Positions 5,965 through 61,425 of a stretch of DNA of 64,000 bases are shown here, piece after piece. Both the position numbers and the translations under genes were made by a program. Origin of the DNA: a virus; the IMG/VR virus record IMGVR_UViG_3300007735_000798, positions 40,737 to 104,736 of that record. One strand, 5' to 3'. How positions within the stretch are numbered: the first letter of the stretch is position 1; each line of letters begins with the position of its first letter. The notes beneath the pieces are model-generated. The model was not told the origin of the DNA and did not search any database. It worked only from the letters and a program-made list of their open reading frames with translations.

Positions 5965-7574
5965 ATTAAAATATCTCCTTGATAACTATAATTTTCTGTT
6001 ATTTCATATATTTTTGAGAAAGCATCTTTTTTAATAGTTCTTTTTTCTAACAAGTAATTTTTATTTAATATATTATATACAGTTTTAATTCTTTGTAATT
6101 CTGAATTAACTTCGCTAATTGCGTAATCAATATTTTTATCTGGTTTCGCAACAGCAGATATATTTAACTCTAGTTGCGCGAGATTTGCACAATTTATATC
6201 TTGAATATTATGCTCTCTTTTTTGGGTAATAGATGATTTTGGTACATAAATAGATATTGATGGATTATATTTTAAACTAGACTTCATTGTAATTACATTA
6301 TCTGAAAAAGGTTTTCTTTTATCAGACCAAGAAGCTGTATATTTAATTTCGGCACCATATTCATTAAAAGTAATTGATTCCGTCAGTGGCTGTGAATAAA
6401 GACTACGACCAGTAATTTCTTTTTTATATTCAGTATTAGCCAAATTAAAAGCATTAAAATTACCACTATAATAATCTTTTACTAATCCCCATCTCGTATT
6501 AACGTCTCCATATTTTCCAAAAATTGTGGCATCTAATTTTACAGTAGTAATATTTTTTATAGGATCGGTAGTTAAATCAACATTATAATTATTTGTAATA
6601 TTAGATAATAAGTCGCTATTATAAGTTAAATTAAAATTTAATTTTTGATTATTGAATTCTTCTTGTACTGATTGGGTAATAGGATTTGAATTTAATGTTG
6701 TACCAAACGTTTTTAATGAAGCCTCGTTTGCTATATTATAAAAATTATAGTCAAAAAATCCTGATCTTAAATTATTAGAAGTTGTCCCAGTCACAATATT
6801 ATTACTTAAAGACCCATCAATTTTAACAGTAATAAGCCCATCTTCAATTCCAGAAGAAATATCTAAATTATAATCAAGAACTGCATTCGCAGGTGACTCC
6901 AAAAAATTTGATTTAACATAAGACCCCTCCCAAGAATATGTACCATCAAATCTGTTTACTGTTTCCTTAATTGATTGTAATAAAAAATTAGAACCATTAC
7001 CCGTTTGAGCAAATATTGGCGTAATTTTATTATAATTTCCAGTTCTAGTTTTTACCCAATTTTTAGCACTTTCAATTGCATTTAAATTTCCAGTTTTTAA
7101 TCCTTTTGCGGATATACTATGTGTTAAATTAACAATAAACCCATTCTCTTCTGAAAAATCAATATTCTCTTCTGGGTCCGTTACTCCATAATATTCGGTA
7201 AAAAGACCACTTTCATATATTTCAAAATCAATTGTAAAAGGTAAGATTCCATAAAATAATCCTTCATCCGTTTTAATTGAATCAATAATCACGTTATTGC
7301 CAGAAAATAAATTTTCAGAATTTTCATTAATAACTAAAGTACCATAATTATTACTTAATCTATTAACAAGTAAATTCAAACCACTATTTAATTCATAAAA
7401 AGACAATTGTCCTAAATTTTTTCCAGTAATTTGACCATTTAAAGTCATTTTAGTGACTTGATTCCATTTAGTATTAAAATTAATAAAATCTTGATTTATA
7501 GAAATAAAAGGGGTCGGTGATATACCATCAAATAAATCAGTATCATTATATAATATTTTGATATTATTATTCAT
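5961..7574 (-). CDS. Tail structural protein
   Basis: 537 aa; overlaps both neighbours; repeat style (INKFDG/VNRFDG) shared with 7574..9544. Confidence 0.5.
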   Translation of the reverse strand: MNNNIKILYNDTDLFDGISPTPFISINQDFINFNTKWNQVTKMTLNGQITGKNLGQLSFYELNSGLNLLVNRLSNNYGTLVINENSENLFSGNNVIIDSIKTDEGLFYGILPFTIDFEIYESGLFTEYYGVTDPEENIDFSEENGFIVNLTHSISAKGLKTGNLNAIESAKNWVKTRTGNYNKITPIFAQTGNGSNFLLQSIKETVNRFDGTYSWEGSYVKSNFLESPANAVLDYNLDISSGIEDGLITVKIDGSLSNNIVTGTTSNNLRSGFFDYNFYNIANEASLKTFGTTLNSNPITQSVQEEFNNQKLNFNLTYNSDLLSNITNNYNVDLTTDPIKNITTVKLDATIFGKYGDVNTRWGLVKDYYSGNFNAFNLANTEYKKEITGRSLYSQPLTESITFNEYGAEIKYTASWSDKRKPFSDNVITMKSSLKYNPSISIYVPKSSITQKREHNIQDINCANLAQLELNISAVAKPDKNIDYAISEVNSELQRIKTVYNILNKNYLLEKRTIKKDAFSKIYEITENYSYQGDILI

Positions 7575-9544
7575 TATGAATATTTATAAACCTCCTCATA
7601 ACCTATTATTTGCTCAATTTCATCAGAAGTAAAATTACAAGATTCTAAATATTTACCAGAATTTCCACCAAAATAATAATTTCTTAGTTGTGTTTTTAAA
7701 GTATCAAAATATAATAAACCATTAAAAATTCCCGTTTGACTTGTTAATCCGATATCTGCTTTACCTTCTATGGTAAAAGTACCCTGTTGTTTCAAATCTC
7801 TATTATGCACTAATTCATATTTATTATTTGGAATTATATATTTTTTAAAATAAGGTGTTAATTGCGTACCAGAACTTCCATCATCAGAATAAGTAATATC
7901 TAATTTTTTGATATCTCCTAAATCTGTTCTAATAGTTGGATCATCAGTATAAGTATAATTATAAGTAATTTTCCCATCAAATGGCGTTCTTGTTATTTGC
8001 TTATCAATTAAATTTATACCACTAGAAGCTTTTTCCAAAGCCTGTCCAGACCAAAAAGATTTTAATCTTGACTCTATTCCTGTTTTTACTACTGCCCAGC
8101 CAGTTTCTGCACTTAAATATTTTGCAGAATTAATAATAGAATTTTTTTCTCCAACACCAATTATTGAACCTTGTTCATTAACACTCCATATGAATTGCTC
8201 ATTACGATTTAATGTAGAAGTATAATCAAAAATATAATTTTTAGAAAACTTTTTATCATTATTAAATGACACATCATATTCAATATTTCCATCAAATTTA
8301 TTTATACGAACTGTTTTTTCAGCCAAAACAGTATTTAAAGCATCAATTATATTAAATTTATTTTTATAGGCTTGGAAAAAATTATTACAACGTAAATAGG
8401 CCCCAGTAATTTCTTTATTTAAACCAATTACGGCATTTTCATATAAACTTGGAATATTATTTTCAGCTTTAATTGAACAATTTTCACCTACATTAGCTAT
8501 ACCATTATTATCTAATGAAATATTTAAATTTCTATTTATAGAATAAGGTTCTAAATTATTGTTAGTAGAATAAGAAAAAGTTTTAGTAAATCCACATTTT
8601 CCGTTAATAATATCATAAGATTCATTTCTTAATACTTTATAAGTTCCTTCTTGTCTAGTCGAATAATTGTATTCTGATAAATTTATTGGAATAGACTTAT
8701 TTAATAATTCTACGGCTAAACTTTGAGCCAATGTTATTACATTAATATCTTTATTATCAGCATTATATTCAATATCTATAGAATGTGTTCCACCTAATAT
8801 TTTTGTATTATTATCAAAATCAAAAGTAAAATTTTCACTAAAACTTTTTATAAGATCAAATCTTTTATTTGATAAATTTAAAATATAATCATTATCAATA
8901 GCTAAAGTTGTATTACCCGCAAAACCTAAAAATCCAAGAAAAGTTATTCCAGTTGGTGGGGTCATTTCACTACTAGACCTTTGAAATCTTGGCGTATTAG
9001 AGGATCCAACCCCTGTAACAGGCGATATTCTCCATTGCGTACTAGACGCATTCCACAAAGCATATATATTTGTAGTATCATAATAAATTGGTCTAGAATT
9101 CAAAATTTGATTTGTTTTATAAAATTTATATCCCGAAAGATTTGGAGATGCACCAGAGGTATTACTAACTATATAATTTGAAGAAATGAATTCTTTTGAT
9201 ACTAAACTTTGTAAATTTGCTGTTGTATAAATTTCAATATCTGCATTATATTTTGTAGAACGTACCCAATTCCCTTCGTCAAAAGATAATGATGTAATTT
9301 TTCCGATACCAAAGTTTTGACCTTTTATTATTATATTATAAAAATTTTGGGCAATATTTTTAATTCTATTTACATCTGTAAAAATATCTTTAACTCCGAC
9401 CGTGTTAGTTAAATCTAAAACATAACCACGAATAGAAAGTGTTTTTGTCGTTGAGTATTGAAATGATTTTTCACCCAAAAAATTATTTTGGTGGTTATAT
9501 CCAAGCACCTCAATGTTATCTAAAATTAATGTTTCAAAAGACAT
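7574..9544 (-). CDS. Distal tail-type protein
   Basis: 656 aa, immediately after TMP. Confidence 0.5.
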   Translation of the reverse strand: MSFETLILDNIEVLGYNHQNNFLGEKSFQYSTTKTLSIRGYVLDLTNTVGVKDIFTDVNRIKNIAQNFYNIIIKGQNFGIGKITSLSFDEGNWVRSTKYNADIEIYTTANLQSLVSKEFISSNYIVSNTSGASPNLSGYKFYKTNQILNSRPIYYDTTNIYALWNASSTQWRISPVTGVGSSNTPRFQRSSSEMTPPTGITFLGFLGFAGNTTLAIDNDYILNLSNKRFDLIKSFSENFTFDFDNNTKILGGTHSIDIEYNADNKDINVITLAQSLAVELLNKSIPINLSEYNYSTRQEGTYKVLRNESYDIINGKCGFTKTFSYSTNNNLEPYSINRNLNISLDNNGIANVGENCSIKAENNIPSLYENAVIGLNKEITGAYLRCNNFFQAYKNKFNIIDALNTVLAEKTVRINKFDGNIEYDVSFNNDKKFSKNYIFDYTSTLNRNEQFIWSVNEQGSIIGVGEKNSIINSAKYLSAETGWAVVKTGIESRLKSFWSGQALEKASSGINLIDKQITRTPFDGKITYNYTYTDDPTIRTDLGDIKKLDITYSDDGSSGTQLTPYFKKYIIPNNKYELVHNRDLKQQGTFTIEGKADIGLTSQTGIFNGLLYFDTLKTQLRNYYFGGNSGKYLESCNFTSDEIEQIIGYEEVYKYS

Positions 9545-9550
9545 ATCTTA

Positions 9551-12500
9551 TTACGGTTTCGAAGGCGGAACTTTTATTCCCATTGCACTTTGTATTTCTC
9601 TAGTAATTCTTGGAATTTGTTTTTGAATTTCAGCCGCGACAGCTGAAGCTACATCTCCACCACTTTCGGCATTTACGACAAGATTAATTGGAGCATTTGT
9701 TGTATTTGCTATTGATGGTGAATTTATACCTTGATTATTTTGCATATTAGAAGCGTCTGTAGTATTTTGTAAACTAGATAAGGAAGTATTAAGATTTTGA
9801 ATTGCGCTTAGTAATGAAGTCAATGCGCTTGTATTTGTATCTAAACTTGATTCTATTTGCGTAAAAGACTGTTCTGAGACAGCAAAATTCGGAATATAAC
9901 CACGACTCATTAATCCCGCAGATTTTTGTCCTATCATTGAGTCATTCAATGCTTTATCTAATCCGCCATGATCAGCTATTGCAGATGCAAATGTAGGTTG
10001 ACTACTATTTCTAATATGTGGAAAAGGTTTAGTGCCATAAATAGCTTTATTACCACTAAGGCGTTCTTCAAGATCCATTACTGAATTTTTGTATGCAAAA
10101 TTTGGAATAAAGCCACCAGCCAAATTATCAGGTGTGGTCCCAGGTGGTAGTTTACCACTTTTTAAAAGTTTCTCTTTTAATTTTAGAGTTTGTGCTTCTG
10201 CAAATACAGTTCCATTCGTTGAAGATATGAGATCTGGTATCATAGCACCAGTAGTTAGTAGATCTTTTCCAGCCCCAATACCTAGACTAGTAATCGCCCC
10301 ATAAACAGCCGCTAATGGATTTTTTCCGATAGCTAGACCACTAGCGGCCCCACCAACAGCAGTTGAGAATATTTTTTCGAGTTGATCAATATAGGGGTTT
10401 TCCGATTTTTTTCCACCATGAAATAAATTATCTAATGCATATTGAGTACTAGCTTCCGCACCAATACCAATGGCTCCAGATTTAAATATATTTTTAGCGC
10501 TATTCGCTACCGAAGCAAGTTTTGTTGTACTATTAACTTGGAATCTATTCCAAATATCTTCAAAAAATGGAATAAGGCTATCGAGAGTATCTTCTAATCC
10601 AATAGTTCTACCAAATTTCGCATTTTTATTTTCTTCTGCGAAATTTGGAATAAAGCCTTTTGCCATACCTATGGCTTTTTGCATATTTCTTGTCAATACG
10701 GCTGTTTGACCACTTCCCCCAAAATTATCAACAAGTTTTTCTCCACTATTAATAAAAGCAGGAGATCCATTTAAATTTGGAATAAATTGTGGTCGATCTC
10801 CAGGTTTTGCCCCTCCAACTCCACGACCGATATCTCGAGATTCTTTATTGTATCCAGGTAAAAATCCTTTTGCATTTGATGTCGACTCTACAGATTTATA
10901 TTTTGCTATTGGTATATAAGGAGTTGGATTTCCAGGCTCCCCTGTTCGTTCTAAAATTTGTTTTAATATATTGTTTGTAATATTAATTGCTTGTACCGTA
11001 GGATCGCTTGAAAGTATTATATCATCTTTATAACTTGTCAGCATCTTTTCTAATGCTTGTTTTTCTTTGGTGTCGCTTGTAGTTTTTATTTTATCACGAA
11101 TTTCTTGTAACAGACTTTCATTTGTTACACCAAGCGCTTGCGCTACTTGGATTTTTGCAATGAGTTCTTCTCCACCCAGCGCTTGTGTTTGTTTTAATGC
11201 GGTTAGAAGCTCTGTTTTAAATTGATCAGGTAAATTTTGATTGCCTTGAACCTGTTTTGTCAATAATTGTATTTTATTAGTAAGATTTTGAGATAAACCA
11301 GCTACAATTTCTTTATAAATTTGACTGTTGGCATCTGGTGTATATCCAGTAAGTTCTTGTAAAGATTGAACATATTGTAAAGCATTACGTCCATATTTTG
11401 GTAATAATTCTTTTCTAGCTCTTTCTGCTTCTGATCCTTGATATCTATATTCACCAAATTGATTAGTTCTAAATACCCCTTTAGTATTTAATGCAGCAAC
11501 TGTATTAGCTGACTTCGCAACTTTATCAAAAGCACTTTCTCCATATTTGGGTGGATTTATAAATTCTTCAATGCCACCGCCAAAATTTTGAGCTTGTTTA
11601 ATTGCATCCACAAGTCTTTTTTGAGTAGTTTCTTGTGCAAGTTTAACTTGTTTTTCTTGTAGCAATTTGGCGGCTTCTTCCGCTTTATCATTTCCCTTAG
11701 ATGTTATACCAATTAGCTCACTTAATTTGTCTTCAAGTGGTTTTCCAAAAAAACCAAGATTATTCAATAATGGAGTAAATATTTCCGATAAATATTCAGG
11801 CTGTAAATTTTTCTTATCTATAATTTCAGAGTTGATTTTTTCTATAAATGCGTCTATAACTGGAGATTTACCATTTTCTGAAATGTTAAGTCTAGTTCTT
11901 AAGTTTTTATCACTGTCTAATTGTTCTTTTGTCGGTAGGACAGCATCATTTATGGCTGTCGCCATCTCAACCATTATATCATCAACTGATTGTTCAAAAT
12001 CAATATTTAATTTTGCAAACTCAGATTTTAGTTCAAAATCTTTTGTCATGCGAGATTCCTGCCCAGTAAGTTGTGATATAAGTTGTGCTGGATTTGTAAA
12101 TTGTTCAGTGTACGAAAATTCTCGAGCAAAACTTCTCTTTTTTTGTTCTATAACTATTGATTTTTTTGCCAAATCAATATTTTTTTGCAATGATTTAATC
12201 ATTGCTTCATTAGCTTTAGCAGCACTTAATTGTGCATTCTCTGTATCTCTTAAGGCTTGTGCATATTGATTAGAAGATGTTACATTTTGTCTAGTAGCAT
12301 AATTAGCATCACTAGCAGCCCTCTGAAGAACTATGAGTGTATCGAGATAATCCTGATTAGTTCGTTTTGCAGCATTTATGGTACTTTCTATAAATTCCGC
12401 GCTTCCTACTACACCTCCCAATGAGTCTTCTAATATTGTTTGTAAATCTTTAACTTTTTCTTCTAATGGGCGGGCATCTTTTTTATATTCTCCAGTGTCA

Positions 12501-15500
12501 GGATTTACGCCAGTTAATAACCCTAATTTTTTACCCGTTTCTTCGTCTAATTTTTTTAAAATAGGCAATGCCTCTTCTCCCTTTTTACCCTGTAAAGCCA
12601 TTCCAATGAATGTATCTCCAAGAAGTTTTATATTTTTTTCAACATCAGCGGTATCTGTTCCCCTAAATAAATAGTTATCTCGTCTACTAGCTAATTCACT
12701 AACCTTCTCGACATTAGCTCTATTTTCCTCTGCGCGTTGTTTTTCTCCTCTTATTTTTGCCATTTCTGCTTGTTGCGCAGTTTTTCCTTGTTTGCTTACA
12801 ATTCTTGCCTGATCTTCTGGTGAAAAATCTGCAAGAGCAGCGGCATATTCATCTTGGGCCTGTTTTACTTTTTGTGGATTTGGAACGGCTTCACTTAAAG
12901 CATTTTTTAAATTTTCGCTAGCAGTTGTTAATCTAGCTGAAGCATCATTAAATTTTGTTAATTCTTGACTAGCTTTTTCATGTGCGGCAATCGCTTCTGG
13001 TAATGTATTATTAAGCTCACTAAAATAATCATTCGCAGCCATAACTCCTCCAGCTATAAGCCCAATCGCGCCACCCGCAGCAGCCCCATAAGGACCAAAA
13101 GCCAGTCCTAATTGAGCACCAGTAGCTCCTAAACTTAGTGCTTGTCCCGCACCAGTAACAGCTGCCGCCGTTGCTCGTCCTTGCGGACTTGTCTGTGAAA
13201 TAGTATTTTTAATAGTGGCCGCAAGAATTGGAGCACCAATTGCTATTGCACTTCCATATGCATCCGCAGCAGCACCAAATTTTTTTACACCTTTGGCTGA
13301 ATCACCCAATGCTTGAAGATTTTGTCTATATTGATTTGTTGTTCCACTTAATACATAACTAAGTCCAACTAATTGAATACTTAACGCACCAAGTGCTGAA
13401 CTAGTACTTGTAGGCTCTTCTGCATAATTTGGTACAAAACCGCGAGAATACATTCCAATACCTTTTCGCTCGCGCCCAATAGCATCTTTTAATCCATTTG
13501 GTTCATCGCGTGTATTTGTCACAGCAATTGGGTTTCCATTTTTATCAAAATGTGCACGAATTTGAGAAACTGGAACGCCACGATTAGTAGAAGCAAAATT
13601 TGGAATAAAACCTTTCGCCATTCCTCTACTTAAAAATGCTGGAATATCTTTTTCAAAAATTCTACCAGGACCATTAGCTTGTTTAATTGGCCAAACAATT
13701 TGATCTTTACTTAAAGGTAGTCCATAAACAGAGGCACCACCAGTCTCCATATCTGGAAGTAGTTCTGAACTTTTTAGTTTATCCCTATTATATCTTACTA
13801 ACCAAGAACTTTGTTTTCTAGCTGAAGCCCAATTTTTTGCACGACCAATATTTTGTTTATAAGCTTGCCTATCGCTCATTTTTTCCCCTGGTCGGGAAAG
13901 AGCATCCCACATGTAAGTTCCAGAGCCACCAAAATATTCCATAGCAGATTGGTCAGAAGATCTATTTCGGAAGGCCCATCCTTTACCGAATTTAGATAAC
14001 ATCATTTTTAATTCTTTGTCATCTACGGCTCTTACGAGTGGTGCTGCAAAATTTGGAATAAAACCGCGCGCATAAATTGGAAAATCTTCTTCTCTTTTTA
14101 GTTGGCCTTTATTTTCTACATATTTTCTAACCATTTGACTATCAAAAGCGATACCCTTGCCACCATGAGTTCTAGATAATCTAAATAAAACTCTTTGAAT
14201 ATCAAATTCTTTTCCTGGAAATTTTTTTAATAATAATTGGTAGACTTTATCATCTACAATTCTTTTTTTAGGGAAGGTAATTTGTCCATAAGCTCCTTTA
14301 TAACCTTCTTGTTCTTCATCTGGAGAGGCAAATGCTTGGGCAACTTTTTTATTTTTAGAAGTGCTCATCATTCGCCAATTAACATCAGTCTCAAAATCTT
14401 GAGAAACTTGATCAAAAATAGCATCTTTAATCCCAGTAGGTTCAAAATCATCACCAGGAGTACCTAACATAGTAAAATCTTTATGTCTATAATCGTCTTT
14501 TCTACCAGCTCTTAGATTAAAAATACTTTGTTTATTTAATTTTTTAAAATCTTTTCCAGGAACTGAAACGCCACGATATAATTTTTCTGTTTGTTCTGAT
14601 CTGCCTAATTTTTTAATTATAGATAAATATTCTCTTAAAATTTGAGCATCAATTGCTTGGGATTTAAAATTAGGATTAGTATTAATATCTTTACGTCTTA
14701 GTGCTAAATCTTTACCAGTAGCTCTTGGTAAATCTTTAAAGTCAATACCACCCAAAAATTTTGGTGATGCAAAATTTGGAATAAAACCAAAAGCAGCTCC
14801 AGGCCTACGAAGAAACTCCATTTCTTTCATTTTTGTGGCTTGAGATTTAAAACCCATTTTTAACGCACGTTCTCCACGAGAACTTCTAGCAAATTGAGTA
14901 ACTTGATCAAAATCGTTTTTTGTCAAACCATTTTCTTCAAATTGTTTTTGAACATATTTCCAATCTCCGATTTTTAATGCATCGACATTAAAAGATCTCC
15001 CAAGCCAACCTTCACCCAACGCTCTAGATAAAGCTTCAATTTTAGCACGACCCTTTAGTGGGAATCCAGGTTGTTTTAGAAAAGCGTCTAAACCAGAAGT
15101 ATTAACGCCCAATTTTGTTGCGGCTTTTATATAAGCATTATTCGATAAACCACTACCCTCCGATAACTTAGTAGATATATTAGGATTAGTTATTCTACTA
15201 TTTATAATTTCTATTAATTTTGAATTTGCAAAATTTGGAACAAAACCAGCAGCCATACCTTTTGATCTACTAATTCTTGCCATTTCTTCTTTAATTGCTT
15301 TTTCTAGTTGTGGTCCTCTTCTTAGATTTTGTCCTTGAAGATTTTTTAAAGCTTCTGTTCTTAATGCTTGTGATTGCTTATAACCAGCACCACTTTTTAC
15401 TTGCTTTACTTCTCCAACTTTAGCTTCTTGTAGTAACTTGCTCATTACATCATTAACTAATTCTGGAGAATATTTAGCATCATACATTCCAGGAGCACCA

Positions 15501-18445
15501 TGAAATAGATTTCTTAGTTTAGGGGTTATTCTATTTTGACGAAAATCAATTCCTGCATTTTGAGAAGTTTTTTGTAAATTTTGTTGAAGTAAAGTAAGTA
15601 AACCACCTTCAAAAGCAACGCCAACAGCCCCTTTTGCCGCACCAAAATTTGGAAGGTCTTGTGCTGATTTTAAGAAATTACCCCCGCCAATTGCTTGACC
15701 AAATTGATTTGCCTCACGAACTAATAGGTCACCTAAATTTTTATCTAAATCTGGAAGTTCGCCCTTAAGAACTTGCTTATTAATTCCAGCTACGGGAATT
15801 AAACCTTTATATTGTTGTCCTAAATAACTTGCTGTTGCTGGGGTCATCGAATATCCTTCAGAAACCCCTGGATGAATTAGAGAAACAACTTTGCCTTTTA
15901 ATGCTGGAGAAGTTGTTGTATCTCCAAGATCAATCAAATTTTTTCCTTGCGCAAAATTTGGAATAAAACCAGAAGCACGATTTTTAAATTTTGATGCAAT
16001 TATATTTGCAGCAGAAGCTCGCACTTTAGGATCGTTAAAATTTTTACCTTTTCCAGCAACATTTCCAAAAAGAGTTTTTCTATCAATATTTCTAACAGAA
16101 TCAATTAGAATGTTTGATAAAAATAAAGAATCTCCTTTTTCGAGACCAGAATTTTTAAAAACTGAAGAATTAGCAACGCTAGGATTTTTCTTTAAAATTG
16201 CCCCAACACCAGCACGTAAATTTACTATTTTATCACGATTACCATCTCCTGGAACTAAAATTGATCCACCACTTCCAGGTGGAATTACTTGATTTCCAAG
16301 AATTTGTGACCCCGAAAGTCTTAATATTTTAGATATATAACTAGCTTTATTACCTTCAGATTCGCTTAATTTTGCATCTCCATATAATGTTCTTCTATTA
16401 ATACCAAGAAGATTTTTAACTTCTGGATTTACTCTTGCGCTAGATAATACGTTTGGTGCAAAATCTATAATATCAGAATCTTCTAAATAAGCTTTTTTAA
16501 GACCTAATGATAAAGCAATAGCATTGTCAAAAACTTTACCAGCAGCAAAACTTTTTTGATATTGAGATATATTTTTTTCATTTGCAAAATTTGGAATATA
16601 TCCTTTCGCCGCCATTTGTACACCATTTCCATACATTGGAATAACCATTGAATCACCATTACTACCAACTCCAGGATATTCAATTTCTTGGTTATTCATT
16701 ACAAATTTTTTACCACCGATTGTACCTTGCGACATGTGTGGCCGAACAGAAGGAGTTGCACCTAAAGCAATTGCCTGTGCTTTTTCAATTTGCTTATCCG
16801 AAGCAAAATTTGGAATATAACCAGCGGCTTTACCAGTTTTTTTCGTTGGCGCTATTGGTACTCCGCCAGTAACACGAACTCCAGCACCATAAAACGCTTT
16901 AGAAATTTGCGCTGCCACCGCAGCTTGTTTTTGTAATTCAACAGTTTGTTTTTGTAAATTTGCTAACAAACTATTAGCGGCAGCATTCAAACCCTGCTCA
17001 CCTTTTAAAGCAAGTTCAAGAAGCTGTGGATTTTTAGATAAAATTTGATTGATACTTTGTTGTAAACTTTGTTGTTGTACTGCGGCCTGATTTAAACCAA
17101 GAAGTTGTTGGACACTTCCAGTTGCAAATTTCCCTAAATCACGAAAAAGTTTAAGTAATACTCCCCCAATAATTGCTAAACCAGGACCCGCAATAAATTG
17201 AGCCAAACCATCTATAATACCTTTACCAAGTGCAGATCCAACTCCAGTTCCTTCAGATTCGTTTACCCCACCCAATATTTTATTAGCTCCACCGACAACA
17301 CGTTCGAATGCTGGACCGAGTAAACGGTTTCCAGCCGTTGCCGCTAATTGTGTGGCATTTTGTTTTAATGTATTAATTTGTGCGGCATAAGTTTTATTTA
17401 GCGCGTCATTTCTTTTAACGGCTTCGTCTGTAGAACTAGCTGCAACATTTAAAGCGCTATTATAAATAGAATATTCTTTACCTAAATCAGCAAGAGCGGC
17501 TTTTAAAATGTTAATTTGAAAAACACCACCAACCTGTTCGGCTACATAAGCTTGTTGTTGCGCTCCAAGAGTATCATAAACCTTACCTAAATCTTGCAAT
17601 AATTGAATTGTAGATTTTAATTGTCCAGAACTATCAGTAGTACTTATTCCTAAACTTCCTAAAAGATCTTGAACCTTACCACGTTCTAAACGTGTAAAAA
17701 TTGTTTTAAATGAGTTACCAATTACAGCGCCACCGCGTGCAGTAGTTTGCTGTGCTGATGTGACAATAGCAATAAGTTCATTAAGTGAAACCCCAGATTG
17801 TGCAGCACTACTACCAACACGACTAATAGCTTCTGCAAGATCCGCCGAACTAACTGCGAAAGCAGCATCAACATTAGCAAATTTATTTACAACTTCACTA
17901 GCGGTTACAGCTTGACTCGCAAAAGAATTGACTGCGGCAGTAAGGGCTTCAACACTTTTTGCCGCATCAAGACCACTTAAACGTGAAAGAATAAGAGCTT
18001 CATTAGTACGTTTTAATGTTTCTGCGACACCCAAACCTTGACGAGAAAATTCTGTAGCTGCTTTGGCTACTTCTTGAAACCCCTGTCCAGTATTTTTAGC
18101 AATATTAAACAATTCACCACCAAATTTTTGTAATTGTGAGGCTGAAACATTTAATATAACATTAATATCTTGTAAAGATTTTTGTACTTCAATAGTAGAT
18201 GAAACTAATGCGCTGAAAGCTTTTTCTAAACCATATATAATTCCAGCACTTGCTCCGAATGCGATAACACGGGCATTAGATGCATCTAATGATTTTGTAA
18301 ATTCATTAACTTGCCCAGTAATACGCCCCAAAGGCTGATCGCCTTTAGTTTTTAAGTTAATAGAATAAACTTTATTGACAGTTCTTTGAATATCTCTGTC
18401 TAATTGCCTAGTATTTCCACCAATATCTAATGTAATAGCAGCCAT
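9551..18445 (-). CDS. Tape measure protein with repeat-delimited internal cargo domains
   Basis: 2964 aa; TP901-type TMP core at the N-terminus (EFSRQG, LAEAISRVG, GAVIGNSFKTIFTRL); follows tail tube and two chaperones; 11 GFIPNFA-type repeats. Confidence 0.9.
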   Translation of the reverse strand: MAAITLDIGGNTRQLDRDIQRTVNKVYSINLKTKGDQPLGRITGQVNEFTKSLDASNARVIAFGASAGIIYGLEKAFSALVSSTIEVQKSLQDINVILNVSASQLQKFGGELFNIAKNTGQGFQEVAKAATEFSRQGLGVAETLKRTNEALILSRLSGLDAAKSVEALTAAVNSFASQAVTASEVVNKFANVDAAFAVSSADLAEAISRVGSSAAQSGVSLNELIAIVTSAQQTTARGGAVIGNSFKTIFTRLERGKVQDLLGSLGISTTDSSGQLKSTIQLLQDLGKVYDTLGAQQQAYVAEQVGGVFQINILKAALADLGKEYSIYNSALNVAASSTDEAVKRNDALNKTYAAQINTLKQNATQLAATAGNRLLGPAFERVVGGANKILGGVNESEGTGVGSALGKGIIDGLAQFIAGPGLAIIGGVLLKLFRDLGKFATGSVQQLLGLNQAAVQQQSLQQSINQILSKNPQLLELALKGEQGLNAAANSLLANLQKQTVELQKQAAVAAQISKAFYGAGVRVTGGVPIAPTKKTGKAAGYIPNFASDKQIEKAQAIALGATPSVRPHMSQGTIGGKKFVMNNQEIEYPGVGSNGDSMVIPMYGNGVQMAAKGYIPNFANEKNISQYQKSFAAGKVFDNAIALSLGLKKAYLEDSDIIDFAPNVLSSARVNPEVKNLLGINRRTLYGDAKLSESEGNKASYISKILRLSGSQILGNQVIPPGSGGSILVPGDGNRDKIVNLRAGVGAILKKNPSVANSSVFKNSGLEKGDSLFLSNILIDSVRNIDRKTLFGNVAGKGKNFNDPKVRASAANIIASKFKNRASGFIPNFAQGKNLIDLGDTTTSPALKGKVVSLIHPGVSEGYSMTPATASYLGQQYKGLIPVAGINKQVLKGELPDLDKNLGDLLVREANQFGQAIGGGNFLKSAQDLPNFGAAKGAVGVAFEGGLLTLLQQNLQKTSQNAGIDFRQNRITPKLRNLFHGAPGMYDAKYSPELVNDVMSKLLQEAKVGEVKQVKSGAGYKQSQALRTEALKNLQGQNLRRGPQLEKAIKEEMARISRSKGMAAGFVPNFANSKLIEIINSRITNPNISTKLSEGSGLSNNAYIKAATKLGVNTSGLDAFLKQPGFPLKGRAKIEALSRALGEGWLGRSFNVDALKIGDWKYVQKQFEENGLTKNDFDQVTQFARSSRGERALKMGFKSQATKMKEMEFLRRPGAAFGFIPNFASPKFLGGIDFKDLPRATGKDLALRRKDINTNPNFKSQAIDAQILREYLSIIKKLGRSEQTEKLYRGVSVPGKDFKKLNKQSIFNLRAGRKDDYRHKDFTMLGTPGDDFEPTGIKDAIFDQVSQDFETDVNWRMMSTSKNKKVAQAFASPDEEQEGYKGAYGQITFPKKRIVDDKVYQLLLKKFPGKEFDIQRVLFRLSRTHGGKGIAFDSQMVRKYVENKGQLKREEDFPIYARGFIPNFAAPLVRAVDDKELKMMLSKFGKGWAFRNRSSDQSAMEYFGGSGTYMWDALSRPGEKMSDRQAYKQNIGRAKNWASARKQSSWLVRYNRDKLKSSELLPDMETGGASVYGLPLSKDQIVWPIKQANGPGRIFEKDIPAFLSRGMAKGFIPNFASTNRGVPVSQIRAHFDKNGNPIAVTNTRDEPNGLKDAIGRERKGIGMYSRGFVPNYAEEPTSTSSALGALSIQLVGLSYVLSGTTNQYRQNLQALGDSAKGVKKFGAAADAYGSAIAIGAPILAATIKNTISQTSPQGRATAAAVTGAGQALSLGATGAQLGLAFGPYGAAAGGAIGLIAGGVMAANDYFSELNNTLPEAIAAHEKASQELTKFNDASARLTTASENLKNALSEAVPNPQKVKQAQDEYAAALADFSPEDQARIVSKQGKTAQQAEMAKIRGEKQRAEENRANVEKVSELASRRDNYLFRGTDTADVEKNIKLLGDTFIGMALQGKKGEEALPILKKLDEETGKKLGLLTGVNPDTGEYKKDARPLEEKVKDLQTILEDSLGGVVGSAEFIESTINAAKRTNQDYLDTLIVLQRAASDANYATRQNVTSSNQYAQALRDTENAQLSAAKANEAMIKSLQKNIDLAKKSIVIEQKKRSFAREFSYTEQFTNPAQLISQLTGQESRMTKDFELKSEFAKLNIDFEQSVDDIMVEMATAINDAVLPTKEQLDSDKNLRTRLNISENGKSPVIDAFIEKINSEIIDKKNLQPEYLSEIFTPLLNNLGFFGKPLEDKLSELIGITSKGNDKAEEAAKLLQEKQVKLAQETTQKRLVDAIKQAQNFGGGIEEFINPPKYGESAFDKVAKSANTVAALNTKGVFRTNQFGEYRYQGSEAERARKELLPKYGRNALQYVQSLQELTGYTPDANSQIYKEIVAGLSQNLTNKIQLLTKQVQGNQNLPDQFKTELLTALKQTQALGGEELIAKIQVAQALGVTNESLLQEIRDKIKTTSDTKEKQALEKMLTSYKDDIILSSDPTVQAINITNNILKQILERTGEPGNPTPYIPIAKYKSVESTSNAKGFLPGYNKESRDIGRGVGGAKPGDRPQFIPNLNGSPAFINSGEKLVDNFGGSGQTAVLTRNMQKAIGMAKGFIPNFAEENKNAKFGRTIGLEDTLDSLIPFFEDIWNRFQVNSTTKLASVANSAKNIFKSGAIGIGAEASTQYALDNLFHGGKKSENPYIDQLEKIFSTAVGGAASGLAIGKNPLAAVYGAITSLGIGAGKDLLTTGAMIPDLISSTNGTVFAEAQTLKLKEKLLKSGKLPPGTTPDNLAGGFIPNFAYKNSVMDLEERLSGNKAIYGTKPFPHIRNSSQPTFASAIADHGGLDKALNDSMIGQKSAGLMSRGYIPNFAVSEQSFTQIESSLDTNTSALTSLLSAIQNLNTSLSSLQNTTDASNMQNNQGINSPSIANTTNAPINLVVNAESGGDVASAVAAEIQKQIPRITREIQSAMGIKVPPSKP

Positions 18446-32616: not shown

Positions 32617-35600
32617 TTACCAAGTTGTTAATGCTGAACGTTTCCATGAGTTTCCACTAACACAAACGTAGATAAAATCATTATCCCAAGAAATTTGTCC
32701 ACGAGTTCCAGCTGATCCAGTACTTGTTGGCACTGTTGGATTTGGAATTATAATTCCAGAAGATGCTATATTAACATTTGCACCAGTTAATGTAAGATCA
32801 CGTAAAGTTCCATTTTGAGTTCTTTGGGTGCCTACAATAAAATTATTATTTTGCCAACCAACAAGTCCAAACTCACCAGTATTAGTACCAGTTAAATTAT
32901 ATACTCTAAATTGTTGGGCATTTGTTCCATTTACTTGAGACAAAATATTTGCTGCGTCACGAGTAATGAATAAATCACAACCTTGATCTAAACTTCTACC
33001 ATGCCCCTGAGTTTGTCCAAAAGCCAAATGACCACCTCCTATAACATATAAATTTTGAGTTAATAAACCATATCCAGCACCAGCACCACCACGAAAAGTT
33101 ATTGCATTATTATTTTGATAAGATGCTAAGCTCATCATATATCCATTATCCCCACGATTTAGTGCGAATTCGGAAATTCCATTGGTTAAACTTGTTGTAG
33201 AAAAAGTTCCATTTTTATTAAAAATAAAATTATTATCGTAAAAATATACAAGGCCACTCGGCTTCATTAAGATATTATTGCCAGTTAAAATTAAATCTCT
33301 TAATGTTCCACTTGTTCCGATTCTTGTCCCAATAATTCCAGTAGTACCAGTCCATCCAAGTGTTAAAAATTCACGGGTGGCAAAATTATTTGTTGTTCCA
33401 GAATATATTTTATAAATATTAAAACCTTGATTGTTTGTGCCTATAGTGTCATTGGCACCATAGGAATCTCTAAGTCCAATATATCTATTTGTACCTTCTC
33501 CAAATAAATATCCAGCACTATTAAGAGTTAAATTATTATTTAAAGAAACAAAATTAGCATCAATTGTTATAGCTGTTCCAGCTGAATAACCAATGGTCAT
33601 ATTATTTGTATTTGGCGTAATTTGATAATAATTTGCGCTACTAGGATTCGATAAATAAATACGACTCGTTCCAGCCCCAGTTGTGCCAATATATAAATCT
33701 CCAGTTGGAATTCTAATATTTCGACCGCTTAAAGCAACATCTCTGAGAATTCCACTTTGTGTGGCTTGTGTGCCAATTACAAGTATATTTTGGCCAATTC
33801 CAGTTCCTGTGGCTTGCCATCCAAAAATTCCAAATTCGCCACTATTTGTTCCAGTACTATTAAAAACTCTTAATCTTTGCGGGTTTGTTCCATTAACAAT
33901 ATCTATACCCGTTGCAAATGTTTTTATACCACTTATTGTTTGATTGCCAGTTAAAGCCACTGCTCCGATAAGATGTGGATCAATTGGATCAGTACCATCC
34001 GTATAATGAGAAATATTATGAGAATAAATTGGCTGGATTCTCATAAATCCACCAGACCAATTATTTAACGGTAAATTTGCAGATAAACTATTGGGTGTTA
34101 CTTGTGGAGAAGCATCTTGCAAAATATTATTATATGTATACCACCAACGAGAGGTACCAGTATTAAAATAAATTTCTACCCCAGTGAGTCCAATTCCACT
34201 ATAATAATAACTAGGATTTGGAAAAACTATAGTTCTATATTCTGGACGTTGAATGAAATTATAAATACCTGGACCAGAAAAACCCCCTTTGATTAATGAG
34301 ACTGGAAAATTTGATGTAATATCATTTTCTACAAATCTTTTTTGCCCACTAATATTTTGATTTCCAAAAACTAATATAGAGTTGCCACTTAAATTATTTA
34401 TCTTCGTGTCAAGTGTTGAACCTGTCGAAGCGAGGCTCGTAATCGTAGCAAATCCAGTATAATTTTCAATATCTTTTATTACCGCAATTGTTTGTGTGGT
34501 CCCAGTTGGATATTTAGTAAAATCATAATATAATGTTCTATTTACGCTATTAATATATAGTTGAGCGTCTTCCAAATAAAATGTACTATATTCACTATTT
34601 GGCGCATCAAATGTTTGTATAGTTGGAGTAGAGGTTTGACCATATTCTCCAATACGAATTCCAGATCTAAATGTTTTTAGCCCTGTAATACTTTGATCGT
34701 TAGTTGTGTAAACAATGGTTTCTGGTAGTTGAGCGGCCTCTCCACTTAAAAGTACGCCAGTTCCATTAACAACAGGGCGATTAGTAAATGTAGCTACACC
34801 ATTTAATATTGAAAGTGATGTATTACCAGGAGCCCCCCCGCCATATTGAAAACTTCCATCGGACATTTTGACTGCTATTACTTCATCACTAGTTGTTATT
34901 AAACCTACTTCATTACTATGAGCGCCATCAGTTATTCTTACTTGTCCTATATTATTATTGCCAAAAAATGTTTGATAAGAAGTAAAAGTTTTAATCCCAT
35001 CAATAGTTTGATCACCAGTTGTAAATACAATATTACTATCACTTGAATTGATGTACCCACTAAGATTATTTATCTTTGTGTCAAGTGTCGAGCCAGTTGA
35101 TGCAAGATTCGTAATAGTAGCGTAATTAGATAAATCAACACCTGTTATAAAACCGCTAGGATTATTTTTTGTATAAAAAGTATTATCAACAAATCCGCTA
35201 TAATTAGTAATATCTGTTGTAGAGGCAATTTTTGCAAGCGTACTTAAATCACTATTTCGAGTGGTGGTTCCAAAGACCCATTGATTAGCAGGAACATCAT
35301 AACCAATAATTGCACCAATACTATTTATTCCAGTCATTCCAGACCCTGTGACTATAAAGATACCAGCATCGCGTGCGCCACCAGTAGCATTTAATAAAAG
35401 ATAATTATTAGCCACATTTGTACTGGTTGTATTGACAATTGTTTGTGTCCCAGTTACATAAAGATCTCTAATATAAACTTCATTATTAAAACGTTTAATA
35501 CCACTAACTGTTTGATTTCCACTCGTAAATAAAACATTATTACTATTCAACAAATCAATAGCTGAAGTTCTAAAAACTTGAGATGTTCTAAGATTAAGTG

Positions 35601-36792
35601 GTGAACTTGTAAATCCTAATAAGTCGTTAATAGAACTAGCATTTGCACCCATTTCGACAAAGGGAGCTCGAAGAACAGAGGCTCCCATCCAAGCACCCTC
35701 AAGTGGAGAATACCCACCAACCTGTAAAACTGAACTACCGCCACCACTTATTAATTTATATCCGCCAATAGTTTGATGACCAGTAGTAAAAACAATATTA
35801 CTACTAGGAGAATTAATGTACCCACTAAGATTTGTAATTCTAGTATTAAGCGTCGAACCTGTTGAAGCAAGATTTATCGCAAGCGTCGAACCAGTTGACG
35901 CAAGGTTCGTGATAGTCGCATAATTTCCCGTTAAATTTCCACTTAAAGAATTAATTTTTGTATTAAGAGTTGAACCAGTTGACTCAAGATTTATAATTGT
36001 TGCGCCCTCTCCACTTAAAAGAACCTTAACATTATTTACAGTTGGAGTTTGATCAAAATTTGTATTACCAAAAATTTCTATTCCATTATTATCAATATTT
36101 AAATACTTTGAAGAATATCCAATTCCAGCATTTATTTGATCAATATATACCCAACCATGAGCACTATCTAAATTTTCACTATCAATCCAAAAATATCCTC
36201 CAGTTTGAATTAAAAAAGTTTTATTCCCACTTATTGATTGCTCACCACTTGTATAAACTATAGTATCTGGTAACTGTGCCGCCTCCCCACTTAATAAAAC
36301 TCCAGTTCCATTAATAAATGGTCTAGAAATAAATGTTTTAACACCTGTAATGGTTTGATCTCCTAATTTTAAAACAGAGATATCGTTCAAATTATTAATA
36401 AATGTTAATAAATTCGATCCAGTTAACTCAAGACCTGTAATTGTGGCATAAGTATTTCCAAGATTATTAATTTGAGATTGTAATATAGAACCAGTTGACT
36501 GTAAATTTATGATTGTAGAAAAAGTATTATTTACGTATCCACTATAATTTAATAAATCTCCAGAAGTTACTAATCCACCAGTAATACCAAGACTTTCTTT
36601 TGTGATTACAACAAACCCAATTTGTCCATTAACGCTTTGAACTGGAGCATAGTTTTCCGATAAACTAATAATAATCGGCTGCTCTGTAATATGGGCCGTT
36701 ACATTATCAATTTGAGAAAAAGAAGTCGCGCCAGAAACATTAACAAATGGATCTGTTTCTATTACTAAATTAATCTCTTCATCGAACCACAT
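32617..36792 (-). CDS. Tail fibre protein
   Basis: 1391 aa; repeats TG(D/N)QTIxGxKTF and YATITNLASTGSTL; C-terminal GTRGQISWDNDFIYVCV...WKR module. Confidence 0.8.
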   Translation of the reverse strand: MWFDEEINLVIETDPFVNVSGATSFSQIDNVTAHITEQPIIISLSENYAPVQSVNGQIGFVVITKESLGITGGLVTSGDLLNYSGYVNNTFSTIINLQSTGSILQSQINNLGNTYATITGLELTGSNLLTFINNLNDISVLKLGDQTITGVKTFISRPFINGTGVLLSGEAAQLPDTIVYTSGEQSISGNKTFLIQTGGYFWIDSENLDSAHGWVYIDQINAGIGYSSKYLNIDNNGIEIFGNTNFDQTPTVNNVKVLLSGEGATIINLESTGSTLNTKINSLSGNLTGNYATITNLASTGSTLAINLASTGSTLNTRITNLSGYINSPSSNIVFTTGHQTIGGYKLISGGGSSVLQVGGYSPLEGAWMGASVLRAPFVEMGANASSINDLLGFTSSPLNLRTSQVFRTSAIDLLNSNNVLFTSGNQTVSGIKRFNNEVYIRDLYVTGTQTIVNTTSTNVANNYLLLNATGGARDAGIFIVTGSGMTGINSIGAIIGYDVPANQWVFGTTTRNSDLSTLAKIASTTDITNYSGFVDNTFYTKNNPSGFITGVDLSNYATITNLASTGSTLDTKINNLSGYINSSDSNIVFTTGDQTIDGIKTFTSYQTFFGNNNIGQVRITDGAHSNEVGLITTSDEVIAVKMSDGSFQYGGGAPGNTSLSILNGVATFTNRPVVNGTGVLLSGEAAQLPETIVYTTNDQSITGLKTFRSGIRIGEYGQTSTPTIQTFDAPNSEYSTFYLEDAQLYINSVNRTLYYDFTKYPTGTTQTIAVIKDIENYTGFATITSLASTGSTLDTKINNLSGNSILVFGNQNISGQKRFVENDITSNFPVSLIKGGFSGPGIYNFIQRPEYRTIVFPNPSYYYSGIGLTGVEIYFNTGTSRWWYTYNNILQDASPQVTPNSLSANLPLNNWSGGFMRIQPIYSHNISHYTDGTDPIDPHLIGAVALTGNQTISGIKTFATGIDIVNGTNPQRLRVFNSTGTNSGEFGIFGWQATGTGIGQNILVIGTQATQSGILRDVALSGRNIRIPTGDLYIGTTGAGTSRIYLSNPSSANYYQITPNTNNMTIGYSAGTAITIDANFVSLNNNLTLNSAGYLFGEGTNRYIGLRDSYGANDTIGTNNQGFNIYKIYSGTTNNFATREFLTLGWTGTTGIIGTRIGTSGTLRDLILTGNNILMKPSGLVYFYDNNFIFNKNGTFSTTSLTNGISEFALNRGDNGYMMSLASYQNNNAITFRGGAGAGYGLLTQNLYVIGGGHLAFGQTQGHGRSLDQGCDLFITRDAANILSQVNGTNAQQFRVYNLTGTNTGEFGLVGWQNNNFIVGTQRTQNGTLRDLTLTGANVNIASSGIIIPNPTVPTSTGSAGTRGQISWDNDFIYVCVSGNSWKRSALTTW

Positions 36793-40184: not shown

Positions 40185-42086
40185 TTAGATTAATTCTGCA
40201 ACAAATGTAGTATTCTTTTTTACAATATTTTCTGGCGCAATTATATCAAAATAAGCTTTTACACCCCAATTTCCTAGCATAAGTGTTGTATAGTTATCTT
40301 TTCTAGCCCTATTTACACTGGTAGATTTTCTTAAATGTGATGGTAAGTCAAAACTTTGAGTACCTCTAGAAGTAGTGCTAACCTCTACATTTGCACATTG
40401 ATCTTTGGTGTCTTGAACTATAAAATCTTGTTGTTCAATAAATTCTCTTACAGTTAATTTTTTAGTTTCATATTCATTATCAGCTTTATCGCCAATTCCT
40501 CTAGGATAAATATATTCCATAGGTAAATTCATAGTAAAAATATTTTCTAAAATATCAGGATGGTTACTAGCTCTAGAGGCAAACCATATTTTTTTATGGT
40601 CTATACAAGTTTGTAAATATGAATTTGCGCGCCCTAAGAAAAAACTTGTAAAATATTGTTTAATACAAATTGTTCCAAAATCTTTATTATATTGTCGAGC
40701 GCAATCTTTTAACATTTTATTATAATCTTCATTTTCTTTATCTGAATCGAAATCTACAAAACCAATTTTGCGATTCATATCTTTAAAAAATTGAGAATTA
40801 TTAACCGCATCAATAAAAGTATCGGCTCCCGCATGGTCAATAATAATTAGTGCAATATTAAAGTTTTTATATAAATAATAAAAATATTTTATATGATCTT
40901 GCAATGAAGATCCAGCAGCCTGGTAACCATGAACTAAAACACCTTGTTTCTTTTCTTCATCTAGTTCAATAACACTCATCGCAAAATAGTCAGCAACCTT
41001 TGAAGAAGAAAAGTTGGGGTCAATAGATAAAATATATTTTTTATCACTATCTCCAATTACTTTTGTTGTAGGATATTCTCCATCTGGAATTGTACACATA
41101 TGCATCTTTTTAGGGGAAAAATAACTATCTCCACCATCAATAAAACGAGCACAATATTCTCTTAAAAACGAATGATGCGAACTTCCACCACTTTTAGCCA
41201 CTTGAATTGCGGCTTGATCTACCATATGGCTAGGTAAAGCTTCATAGCCTAATTGTGAAACAAAATAAGTACCAGGAAGTTCTCCTTCTTTAGTCTCTTG
41301 TTCTTCTGGGTGTTCTATCAAATGTGACCATTGTTGATAAACACGAAATAAATGTTCAAATGTATAACTTGCAGAACTAAGAGCTAACATCTGAGAAGTA
41401 TTTTCAAAGATTTGTTTATTATCAGGATGTAGTAACCCCTTTTTAATTAATTCATCTTCTAATTTTCTAATACGAATTCTTTCGCCTACGTCACGAGGAG
41501 AACTTAAAAATGGAATTAATACATTATCAATAATATCTGGAGGTAAAAGTAAAAACTCATCAAGAATAAGGACGTTCGCTCGAATACCACGAATTTTTTC
41601 ACCAGTTAATGGGATAGCCGTAATACTGCCACCATTTACTTCCCATTCGTATTGGTCATTTCGTTTACTTTTTAAACCAAAACATTGACGAGCCAAAGCG
41701 GCTTGTGGAGAACTCAAAAATTTTTCAATTTCATTAAATACACGACGACTTGTACGAAAGTTAATTGATGCAATAAGAATTTTAGTTCCTGGCTCAAAAA
41801 TACATTTTAAAATACAATAAATAGCCGCACAAAAACTTTTTGCACAACCACGACCCCATACAAGCATGCAATAATTTCTATTAAAAAAGGAATTAATTGT
41901 TAGTTCTTGATACGATTCTAGATTTAAACCCAAAGCTAAATCAGTTGTAAAACCAAGATTATAACGTAAAAATTTTGCAAGAGATACTCTTGCTTCTTGA
42001 TCTGTTAAATCTCCTTTTAATTCTAAAAGATTGTCATTAACAGAAACAAGTTCTTTTTTATTTTGAGATCCTACGATAAGAGCCAT
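40185..42086 (-). CDS. terL: Terminase large subunit
   Basis: Walker A-like GRGCAKS, IRGIRA-ILDE Walker B, LSSA motif III, RNase H-like SIDP...D and C-terminal KD. Confidence 0.9.
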   Translation of the reverse strand: MALIVGSQNKKELVSVNDNLLELKGDLTDQEARVSLAKFLRYNLGFTTDLALGLNLESYQELTINSFFNRNYCMLVWGRGCAKSFCAAIYCILKCIFEPGTKILIASINFRTSRRVFNEIEKFLSSPQAALARQCFGLKSKRNDQYEWEVNGGSITAIPLTGEKIRGIRANVLILDEFLLLPPDIIDNVLIPFLSSPRDVGERIRIRKLEDELIKKGLLHPDNKQIFENTSQMLALSSASYTFEHLFRVYQQWSHLIEHPEEQETKEGELPGTYFVSQLGYEALPSHMVDQAAIQVAKSGGSSHHSFLREYCARFIDGGDSYFSPKKMHMCTIPDGEYPTTKVIGDSDKKYILSIDPNFSSSKVADYFAMSVIELDEEKKQGVLVHGYQAAGSSLQDHIKYFYYLYKNFNIALIIIDHAGADTFIDAVNNSQFFKDMNRKIGFVDFDSDKENEDYNKMLKDCARQYNKDFGTICIKQYFTSFFLGRANSYLQTCIDHKKIWFASRASNHPDILENIFTMNLPMEYIYPRGIGDKADNEYETKKLTVREFIEQQDFIVQDTKDQCANVEVSTTSRGTQSFDLPSHLRKSTSVNRARKDNYTTLMLGNWGVKAYFDIIAPENIVKKNTTFVAELI

Positions 42087-61277: not shown

Positions 61278-61350
61278 GCGGGGCAATGTTCCAAGGCTGG
61301 CGAGAAGGTCTCCAAAACCATCTGGCAGAGTTCGATTCTCTGGCCTCGTG
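61278..61350 (+). tRNA. tRNA-Trp(CCA)
   Basis: Acceptor GCGGGGC/GCCTCGT, anticodon loop CTCCAAA, T arm CAGAG-TTCGATT-CTCTG; weak D arm; no encoded CCA. Confidence 0.75.
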
Positions 61351-61353
61351 CGC

Positions 61354-61425
61354 GGGATGGTAGCTCAAAGGTAGAGCAGCGCCCTTTTAAGGCGTTGGTT
61401 GTGAGTTCGATCCTCACCCATCCCA
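61354..61425 (+). tRNA. tRNA-Lys(TTT)
   Basis: GGGATGG/CCATCCC acceptor, GCTC/GAGC D arm, GCGCC-CTTTTAA-GGCGT, GTGAG-TTCGATC-CTCAC. Confidence 0.92.

Follow-up and report, generated by a model that had tools for sequence, protein, structure and literature searches.

A repeat-bounded, exchangeable cassette with ADP-ribosyltransferase-like motifs in a phage tape measure protein

We analysed a 64,000-nucleotide (nt) stretch of viral DNA (the window; positions 40,737 to 104,736 of the 104.7-kb IMG/VR record IMGVR_UViG_3300007735_000798, estimated to be 69% complete) from an uncultured aquatic phage and focused on one segment of its giant tape measure protein (TMP), hereafter the module, which lies between two copies of a seven-residue repeat and which a first-pass annotation had described as an ADP-ribosyltransferase (ART)-like cargo domain. 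Comparison with metagenomic contigs and with the known relatives revealed that, with little room for doubt, this segment is a real, optional and swappable in-frame cassette of the TMP. The cargo part of the earlier description was thereby strengthened: the module is a discrete in-frame accessory unit with identical 21-nt repeats at its ends, with different neighbours in its relatives, and with exact deletion and relocation in contigs. The ART part found no independent support, as the module matched no ART profile and no PDB entry, and its profile-profile signal depends on two motifs on which it had been selected. On balance, the module is probably an accessory part of the TMP that is optional and exchanged horizontally, and not a canonical working ART. 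An ART-derived fold is possible but falls short of being probable, and a working ART dependent on nicotinamide adenine dinucleotide (NAD) is unlikely.

The TMP was identified from the list of open reading frames (ORFs) and its translation as the product of a minus-strand ORF (Table 1). Its residues 116-307 match the Pfam family PhageMin_Tail (PF10145, E 1.9e-27), the protein matches the tape measure family phrog_4211 (E 5.5e-54), and several PHROG tape measure families cover its first ~500 residues. The plus-strand frame of 14066-14768 is packed with stops, and the feature sits on the minus strand. The TMP contains 12 in-frame copies of G[FY][ILV]PN[FY]A, at residues 542, 615, 826, 1067, 1220, 1461, 1612, 1669, 2527 (degenerate), 2597, 2778, and 2849. 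Across these copies (window positions 9872-16831), the peptide is kept while synonymous codons vary (GGT/GGA/GGC, GCA/GCT/GCG, CCA/CCG, TTT/TTC), which points to selection on the GFIPNFA peptide itself, beyond the DNA alone. Semi-conservation extends to the two residues preceding the repeat ([AS]-x) and to a Lys that follows it at a distance of two to three residues. Repeats 5 and 6, which bound the module, are identical over 21 nt.

To follow the module in natural populations, contigs of four independent metagenomes (Logan assemblies) were compared over 13400-16900, and habitat labels were used only for runs that contained at least 0.2 of the words. In a contig from a freshwater run (X3), position 14044 is joined straight to 14768 with zero mismatches on either side, and a contig from a groundwater run (X4) carries the same joint with 19 mismatched letters along the longer of its two sides. 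This joint corresponds to an in-frame loss of 723 nt, or 241 codons, exactly the module plus one repeat, with 21 letters shared at the junction. In a second X4 contig, module 6 is immediately followed by the module. In a contig from wastewater (X8), the module and module 4 are both retained, with 11 differences across 1,208 nt, while module 3 is swapped for 843 other letters and module 2 is gone. Chimeric assembly joins at the repeat are possible, yet the identical joint was found in two studies. Examples of rearrangements in the contigs at GFIPNFA repeats are the following: 15249 leads to 15952 with 843 other letters between, 15976 to 16629 is skipped, and 13615 leads to 14757 with 1,270 other letters between. 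The whole TMP insert region 13400-16900 (modules 1-7) behaves as a cassette array, with deletions, replacements, and reorderings exactly at the repeats.

Comparison of the module with protein and nucleotide collections showed that it is nearly an orphan. A phmmer search against 1.84 billion cluster representatives returned just P0002, which is near-identical, and P0004, a 3,857-residue repeat protein that was rejected as spurious because it matches a 42-residue stretch without STS. A word-indexed search returned two TMPs, P0002 (2,518 residues; 99% identity over the module) and P0003 (2,942 residues; 81%). Shorter or stand-alone forms of the module were absent from the word-indexed protein database and from scans of viral, genome, and metagenome contigs, and tblastn on 50,697 phage records returned no relatives of the module. 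The module is the sole inter-repeat cassette common to all three known TMPs, and its neighbours differ among them: here they are modules 4 and 6, in P0003 the homologues of modules 3 and 4, and in P0002 two unrelated segments. Beyond the downstream repeat, the sequence is different in each of the three. The P0002 module is 99% identical to the one studied here while the N-terminal TMP core is 86% identical, which indicates recent exchange. In P0003, identity reaches 91% for module 4 but only 58% for module 3. This mosaic pattern in P0002 and P0003 suggests that single cassettes were exchanged laterally in recent times.

Table 1. Coordinates of the TMP, the module, and its candidate motifs in the window
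Feature	Position	Strand	Remarks
TMP ORF	9551..18445	-	2,964 aa; 12 GFIPNFA-type repeats between unrelated modules
Repeat 5, GFIPNFA, aa 1220-1226	14768..14788	-	Upstream module boundary; junction of the natural 723-nt deletion
Module, aa 1227-1460 (234 aa), between repeats 5 and 6	14066..14767	-	Optional cassette; two relatives, 99% and 81% identity, both in TMPs
Y1290-R1291-G1292 in LYRGVS, candidate strand-1 Arg motif	14570..14578	-	Invariant in three sequences; paired by hhalign with LYRGIS of T4 ModB (R73-G74)
S1361-T-S1363 then KNKKVAQAFA, candidate strand-2 S-x-S and helix	14327..14365	-	Aligned to the Mod-family S-F-[ST]...tA..FA block
DDKVYQLLLKKFPGKEFDI, probably helical block	14198..14254	-	Aligned by hhalign to the Mod-family NYQEdmlkiLlaaPd.EF block; pLDDT ~60-76 in both models; not significant alone
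E1452-E1453-D1454 in KREEDFPIYARG, best but non-canonical E-x-E candidate	14084..14092	-	Opposite E171-Q-E173 of ModB in the profile alignment; E-Q-D in P0003
Repeat 6, GFIPNFA, aa 1461-1467	14045..14065	-	Downstream module boundary

Analysis of the module translation confirmed the two motifs on which the first-pass annotation had based its proposal, EKLYRGVS (beginning at residue 1287) and MMSTSKNKKVAQAFA (beginning at residue 1359, with STS at 14357-14365), both on the minus strand within the segment between repeats 5 and 6. At the sequence level, the first provides a candidate strand-1 Arg in the hydrophobic/aromatic-R-[GS] context of R-S-E ARTs, and the second provides an S-T-S (S-x-S) followed by a putative helix with A..F. 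The STS block resembles VVSASYDKNIALHFAS of T4 ModA, and the stretch M-M-S1361-T-S1363 with KNKKVAQAFA reads TSTSKDKRVARSFG in P0003. The catalytic [QE]-x-E that opens strand 5 of R-S-E ARTs and precedes hydrophobic residues is absent from the module; the best candidate is E1452-[EQ]-D1454-F-P-I-Y, which has Asp at the catalytic position. The earlier caution that the catalytic Glu could not be located with confidence was thus justified. Strands completing the beta-sandwich after the catalytic strand were not found in the module either, as it stops six residues past E-x-D, at GFIPNFA. The spacing from the Arg to STS is 70 residues, as against 24-28 in ModA/ModB and Alt. YRG, STS, E1452, and D1454 are invariant in all three module sequences, which says little because these sequences are 81-99% identical.

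The chance occurrence of the motifs was estimated in shuffled versions of the minus-strand proteins of the window (17.7k residues). The loose pair, [YFW]RG followed after 20-100 residues by ST[ST], matched at least once in 23% of the shuffled proteomes. The fraction fell to 8% when the second position ahead of STS also had to be hydrophobic, and to 0 of 500 when the loose pair had instead to be followed by A..F 3-10 residues after STS. The full motif set is unusual for one window. It is not its own confirmation, because the finding was selected on exactly these motifs, among many windows.

To compare the module with the closest candidate family, we built an alignment of T4 ModA/ModB and their homologues from nine IMG/VR T4-like genomes and four phage records, with two truncated sequences excluded from the profile. 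The hhalign comparison gave one co-linear alignment with a score of 27.6 (P 0.002, probability 14%). In this alignment, KLYRGVS of the module stands against QLYRGIS of the family, RMMSTSKNKKVAQAFAS against rV.SFSsd..tA..FA, DDKVYQLLLKKFPGKEF against NYQEdmlkiLlaaPd.EF, and REEDFPIYARG against REQEWMIPIGK, so that E1452 is paired with ModB E171 and D1454 with ModB E173. E-x-E is present in all collected Mod homologues. With a single-sequence query, the acidic registration shifts to Y-V-E1443, which is Asp in P0003. Masking of 11 residues (LYRGVS and MMSTS) lowered the module score to 15.5 (z 1.0), and T4 Alt masked likewise gave z 1.2. Among 121 windows of the proteins of this phage scored against the Mod profile, two module windows ranked at the top (27.2 and 26.8); the N-terminal 250 residues of a neighbouring 656-residue protein, which has neither the Arg nor the acidic motif, reached 26.4, a false positive of the same size. 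An hmmsearch with the Mod hidden Markov model gave the TMP an E of 0.2 among 248 ORFs. These comparisons show that the similarity to Mod is real at the motif level and no weaker than that between two true ARTs. Against the background of real proteins, it is not significant once selection is counted.

Searches with curated families and PDB sequences did not identify the module as an ART. Neither Pfam nor PHROGs nor NCBIfam, including the curated R-S-E profiles, matched the module at E <= 10, and PF03496 matched nothing in the whole virus record. In control searches, PF03496 detected T4 Alt (E 5.8e-36), and phrog_832 detected T4 ModA/ModB at 1e-33 to 1e-41, yet did not detect the module at E <= 10. 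NCBIfam and the Pfam copy used here, which did not contain PF26816 (Mod_ADP_RT), also miss ModA/ModB, which are experimentally established ARTs. Their negatives for the module are therefore weak, while that of phrog_832 is not. Sequence searches of the PDB, whether queried by the module or by the TMP alignment, returned nothing meaningful, and ModA/ModB had no PDB relatives in a sequence search. Between T4 Alt and the module, no BLASTP similarity was found, and hhalign to a thin Alt profile gave a probability of 0.4%. AlphaFold2 models of residues 1220-1467 and 1262-1482 had mean predicted local distance difference test (pLDDT) values of 39.4 and 37.2, too low for either model to be of use. 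They were built from three-row alignments, as only three sequences exist, and Mod homologues were kept out because they would impose the fold under test. In both poor models, the sole stretch of moderate confidence lies around DDKVYQLLLKKFPGKEFDIQRVLFRL and is predicted to be helical.

T4 ModA/ModB, small R-S-ExE mono-ADP-ribosyltransferases (phrog_832), show the best co-linear resemblance to the module. Shared features are a putative helix (IIKK) leading into LYRG[IV]S, an S-x-[ST] with tA..FA[SG], an LLxxxPxxEF, and an R-E-x-[ED]-aromatic-x-I near the end, and the putative core of the module (~195 residues) is similar in size. The module differs in having Asp opposite ModB E173, ~45 extra residues between the R and STS blocks, and no significant profile match. 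It also lacks the last 25-30 residues (about 30) of ModA/ModB, which we read as the strands that close the fold. ModA/ModB are synthesised as free proteins early after infection, whereas the module is part of the TMP. In T4 ModB, R73 is catalytically required (PMC10468400). T4 Alt sets the precedent of an ART that the virion brings along ready to modify the host (PMC10468400; PMC5512222). It is a separate head protein that is injected with the DNA and has a clear PF03496 match, while the module rides on the tail TMP and gives no PF03496 signal. ARTs are the commonest enzymatic domain among effector fusions to virion or transfer proteins (PMC7302621; PMC5512222). The MuF-VIP2 fusions of actinobacteriophages and the polyvalent proteins resemble the TMP described here in carrying in-frame domains fused to a virion or transfer protein, with many unrelated domains per polypeptide. 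Their ARTs, however, are recognisable by profiles and are carried by MuF or a large internal protein, whereas here a strictly conserved seven-residue repeat separates the domains. The modules of the TMP are mutually non-paralogous, a Pfam search of the inter-repeat modules returned zero matches for any of them, and no function could be assigned to a single one. A metallopeptidase for processing is usual in polyvalent proteins; Pfam detected no peptidase family in this TMP or its modules, and the zincin-like feature of polyvalent proteins was not found. TMPs with enzymatic domains include that of mycobacteriophage TM4, with peptidoglycan hydrolase motifs, and T5 Pb2, with a peptidase. As here, an extra functional domain lies inside a TMP used at infection. 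Those domains target the cell wall and work outside the cytoplasm, whereas an NAD-dependent ART would need cytoplasmic delivery, and, unlike them, the present TMP has many cassettes, which are optional and swappable. ART domains in TMPs are not described in the searched literature, and the term "tape measure" is absent from PMC5512222.

Several observations weigh against our preferred reading of the module as an accessory cassette that is not a canonical working ART, and most of them favour an injected working enzyme of the Alt/ModA/ModB (R-S-E) lineage. Such an enzyme would use NAD+ through R1291 and S1361-T-S1363, catalyse through E1452/D1454 as an R-S-D variant, and modify host proteins after expulsion of the TMP. 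LYRG[VI]S, [MT]STS then A..F[AG], and R-E-x-D-F-P-I-Y follow the same order as three ModA/ModB active-site blocks, and their local context fits as well. Column shuffles scored 13.5 ± 2.4, with 0 of 300 reaching the 26.9 of the first run, and T4 Alt, a genuine ART, scored only 20.7-22.6 against the same Mod profile, below the module. At eight key Mod columns, the module matches seven and the best of 120 other windows five, where six of the columns are the selected motifs. Among the named clusters of a language-model Atlas, 17 of 30 carry PF03496 and others are Mod_ADP_RT (the family missing from our Pfam library), DRAT, and ART, with scores of 0.85-0.91. In addition, the delivery and effector role that the preferred reading assigns to the module is one that we infer. 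A working enzyme is further favoured by the absence of the strict motif pattern from all shuffled proteomes and by the weakness of the Pfam and NCBIfam negatives. Among phage polyvalent proteins, ARTs of the H-Y-D clade carry an Asp in strand 5 (PMC5512222), and ARTs delivered by the virion have precedents in T4 Alt (PMC10468400) and the MuF-VIP2 fusions (PMC7302621). Nevertheless, we judge a working enzyme of this lineage improbable. The phrog_832 profile detects ModA/ModB and not the module, and the hhalign signal is lost on masking of 11 motif residues and is equalled by the unrelated 656-residue neighbour. There is no E-x-E, and the registration of the acidic motif is unstable. The distance from the Arg to STS is more than twice that in Mod and Alt, and the module ends shortly past E-x-D where ModA/ModB run ~30 residues further; the sequence after the repeat differs among the three TMPs. 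By its own calibration, the Atlas rates such scores as weak (recognition 2073, below the 2300 mark; 130 shared features, which is low), and the calibration speaks against the family: four of the ten best matches share a family or clan, which its calibration grades as "probably wrong". The Atlas neighbours are a lead that may be driven by the two motifs.

A non-catalytic descendant of an ART, a relic or repurposed fold from which the catalytic Glu and the C-terminal strands have disappeared and which now functions in binding, would account for the retained R and STS blocks, the Asp at the Glu position, and a C-terminus shorter than that of ModA/ModB. We hold this to be rather less likely still, as independent evidence for the fold is lacking just as for the working enzyme, and the 99% identity across diverged TMPs reflects recent exchange and is silent on which residues matter. 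The module could also be structural filler that adds mass or length to the TMP (in the tail-tip cavity or for tail length), with no effector role and with coincidental ART motifs. The lack of Pfam matches for every inter-repeat module of the TMP and the frequency of the loose motif pair in shuffled proteomes are in line with this, but a fixed structural role is hard to square with the coexistence of natural variants in which the module is missing or relocated, and the module is the only inter-repeat cassette in all three known relatives; filler is thus very improbable. For the preferred accessory cassette, the sole specific candidate chemistry, proposed from sequence, would be that of a very divergent ModA/ModB-like R-S-E ART in which Asp (E-x-D) replaces the catalytic Glu. 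The case is weaker than for typical profile-supported ART domains, and the module should not be counted as an ART absent a structure or an assay.

For the accessory cassette, the data show that the identical 21-nt DNA copies of the GFIPNFA repeat act as recombination points on both sides of the module. The GFIPNFA peptide may be a cleavage site, a docking strand, or no more than a scaffold for recombination. Being fused in frame to the TMP, the module would be expected to reside in the tail and to leave together with that protein when infection begins; what is generally known of TMPs would place it in the tail lumen until its expulsion, which precedes that of the DNA. It would then act on the host envelope or in the cytoplasm as an accessory effector and would not be part of the length ruler, because variants lacking the module coexist with those that carry it. 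As candidate chemistry, it would ADP-ribosylate host proteins in an NAD-dependent manner, like T4 Alt (PMC10468400). That a ModA/ModB-lineage R-S-D ART travels as a repeat-swapped optional TMP cassette, so that different phage variants of one habitat carry, lack, or reposition a pre-made host-modifying enzyme entering ahead of the DNA, is a doubtful proposition to which we give little credence. If the module were a working ART, the tail tape measure would join the known carriers of pre-made phage effectors (the T4 Alt head and the MuF fusions), and an unusual E-x-D active site would be added. The enzyme question aside, the TMP is a chassis on which the module is gained, lost, and moved in natural populations via recombination at a 21-nt, seven-residue repeat. 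The main interest lies in the cassette polymorphism and not in the unproven enzyme, and a comparison of naturally occurring variants that have or lack the module offers a simple test of the role of such inserts. ART negatives from the Pfam and NCBIfam libraries used here should be read with care.

The phage itself belongs to a very divergent lineage, and its virion module is very remote from those of described phages, as judged from the large structural ORFs, which are nearly without Pfam or PHROG matches. Fifteen large ORFs (the tail and structural genes in 1384-28249, plus 32617-36792) were checked, ten against PHROGs and seven against Pfam, with two in both; the sole match among them was the 1,391-residue protein at 32617-36792, which gave weak PHROG matches. 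The 656-residue protein just downstream of the TMP (7574-9544, minus strand) has no Pfam or PHROG match. Around the TMP, the guanine-plus-cytosine (GC) content is ~30%. Between 50000 and 64000, GC climbs from ~30% to 46-49% and long ORFs nearly vanish, and long frames do not reappear when TGA, TAG, or TAA is taken as a sense codon. In this part of the window, Rfam finds only a tRNA, and tRNA-Trp and tRNA-Lys lie at 61278-61425. The region may be of foreign origin, non-coding, or the product of an assembly join.

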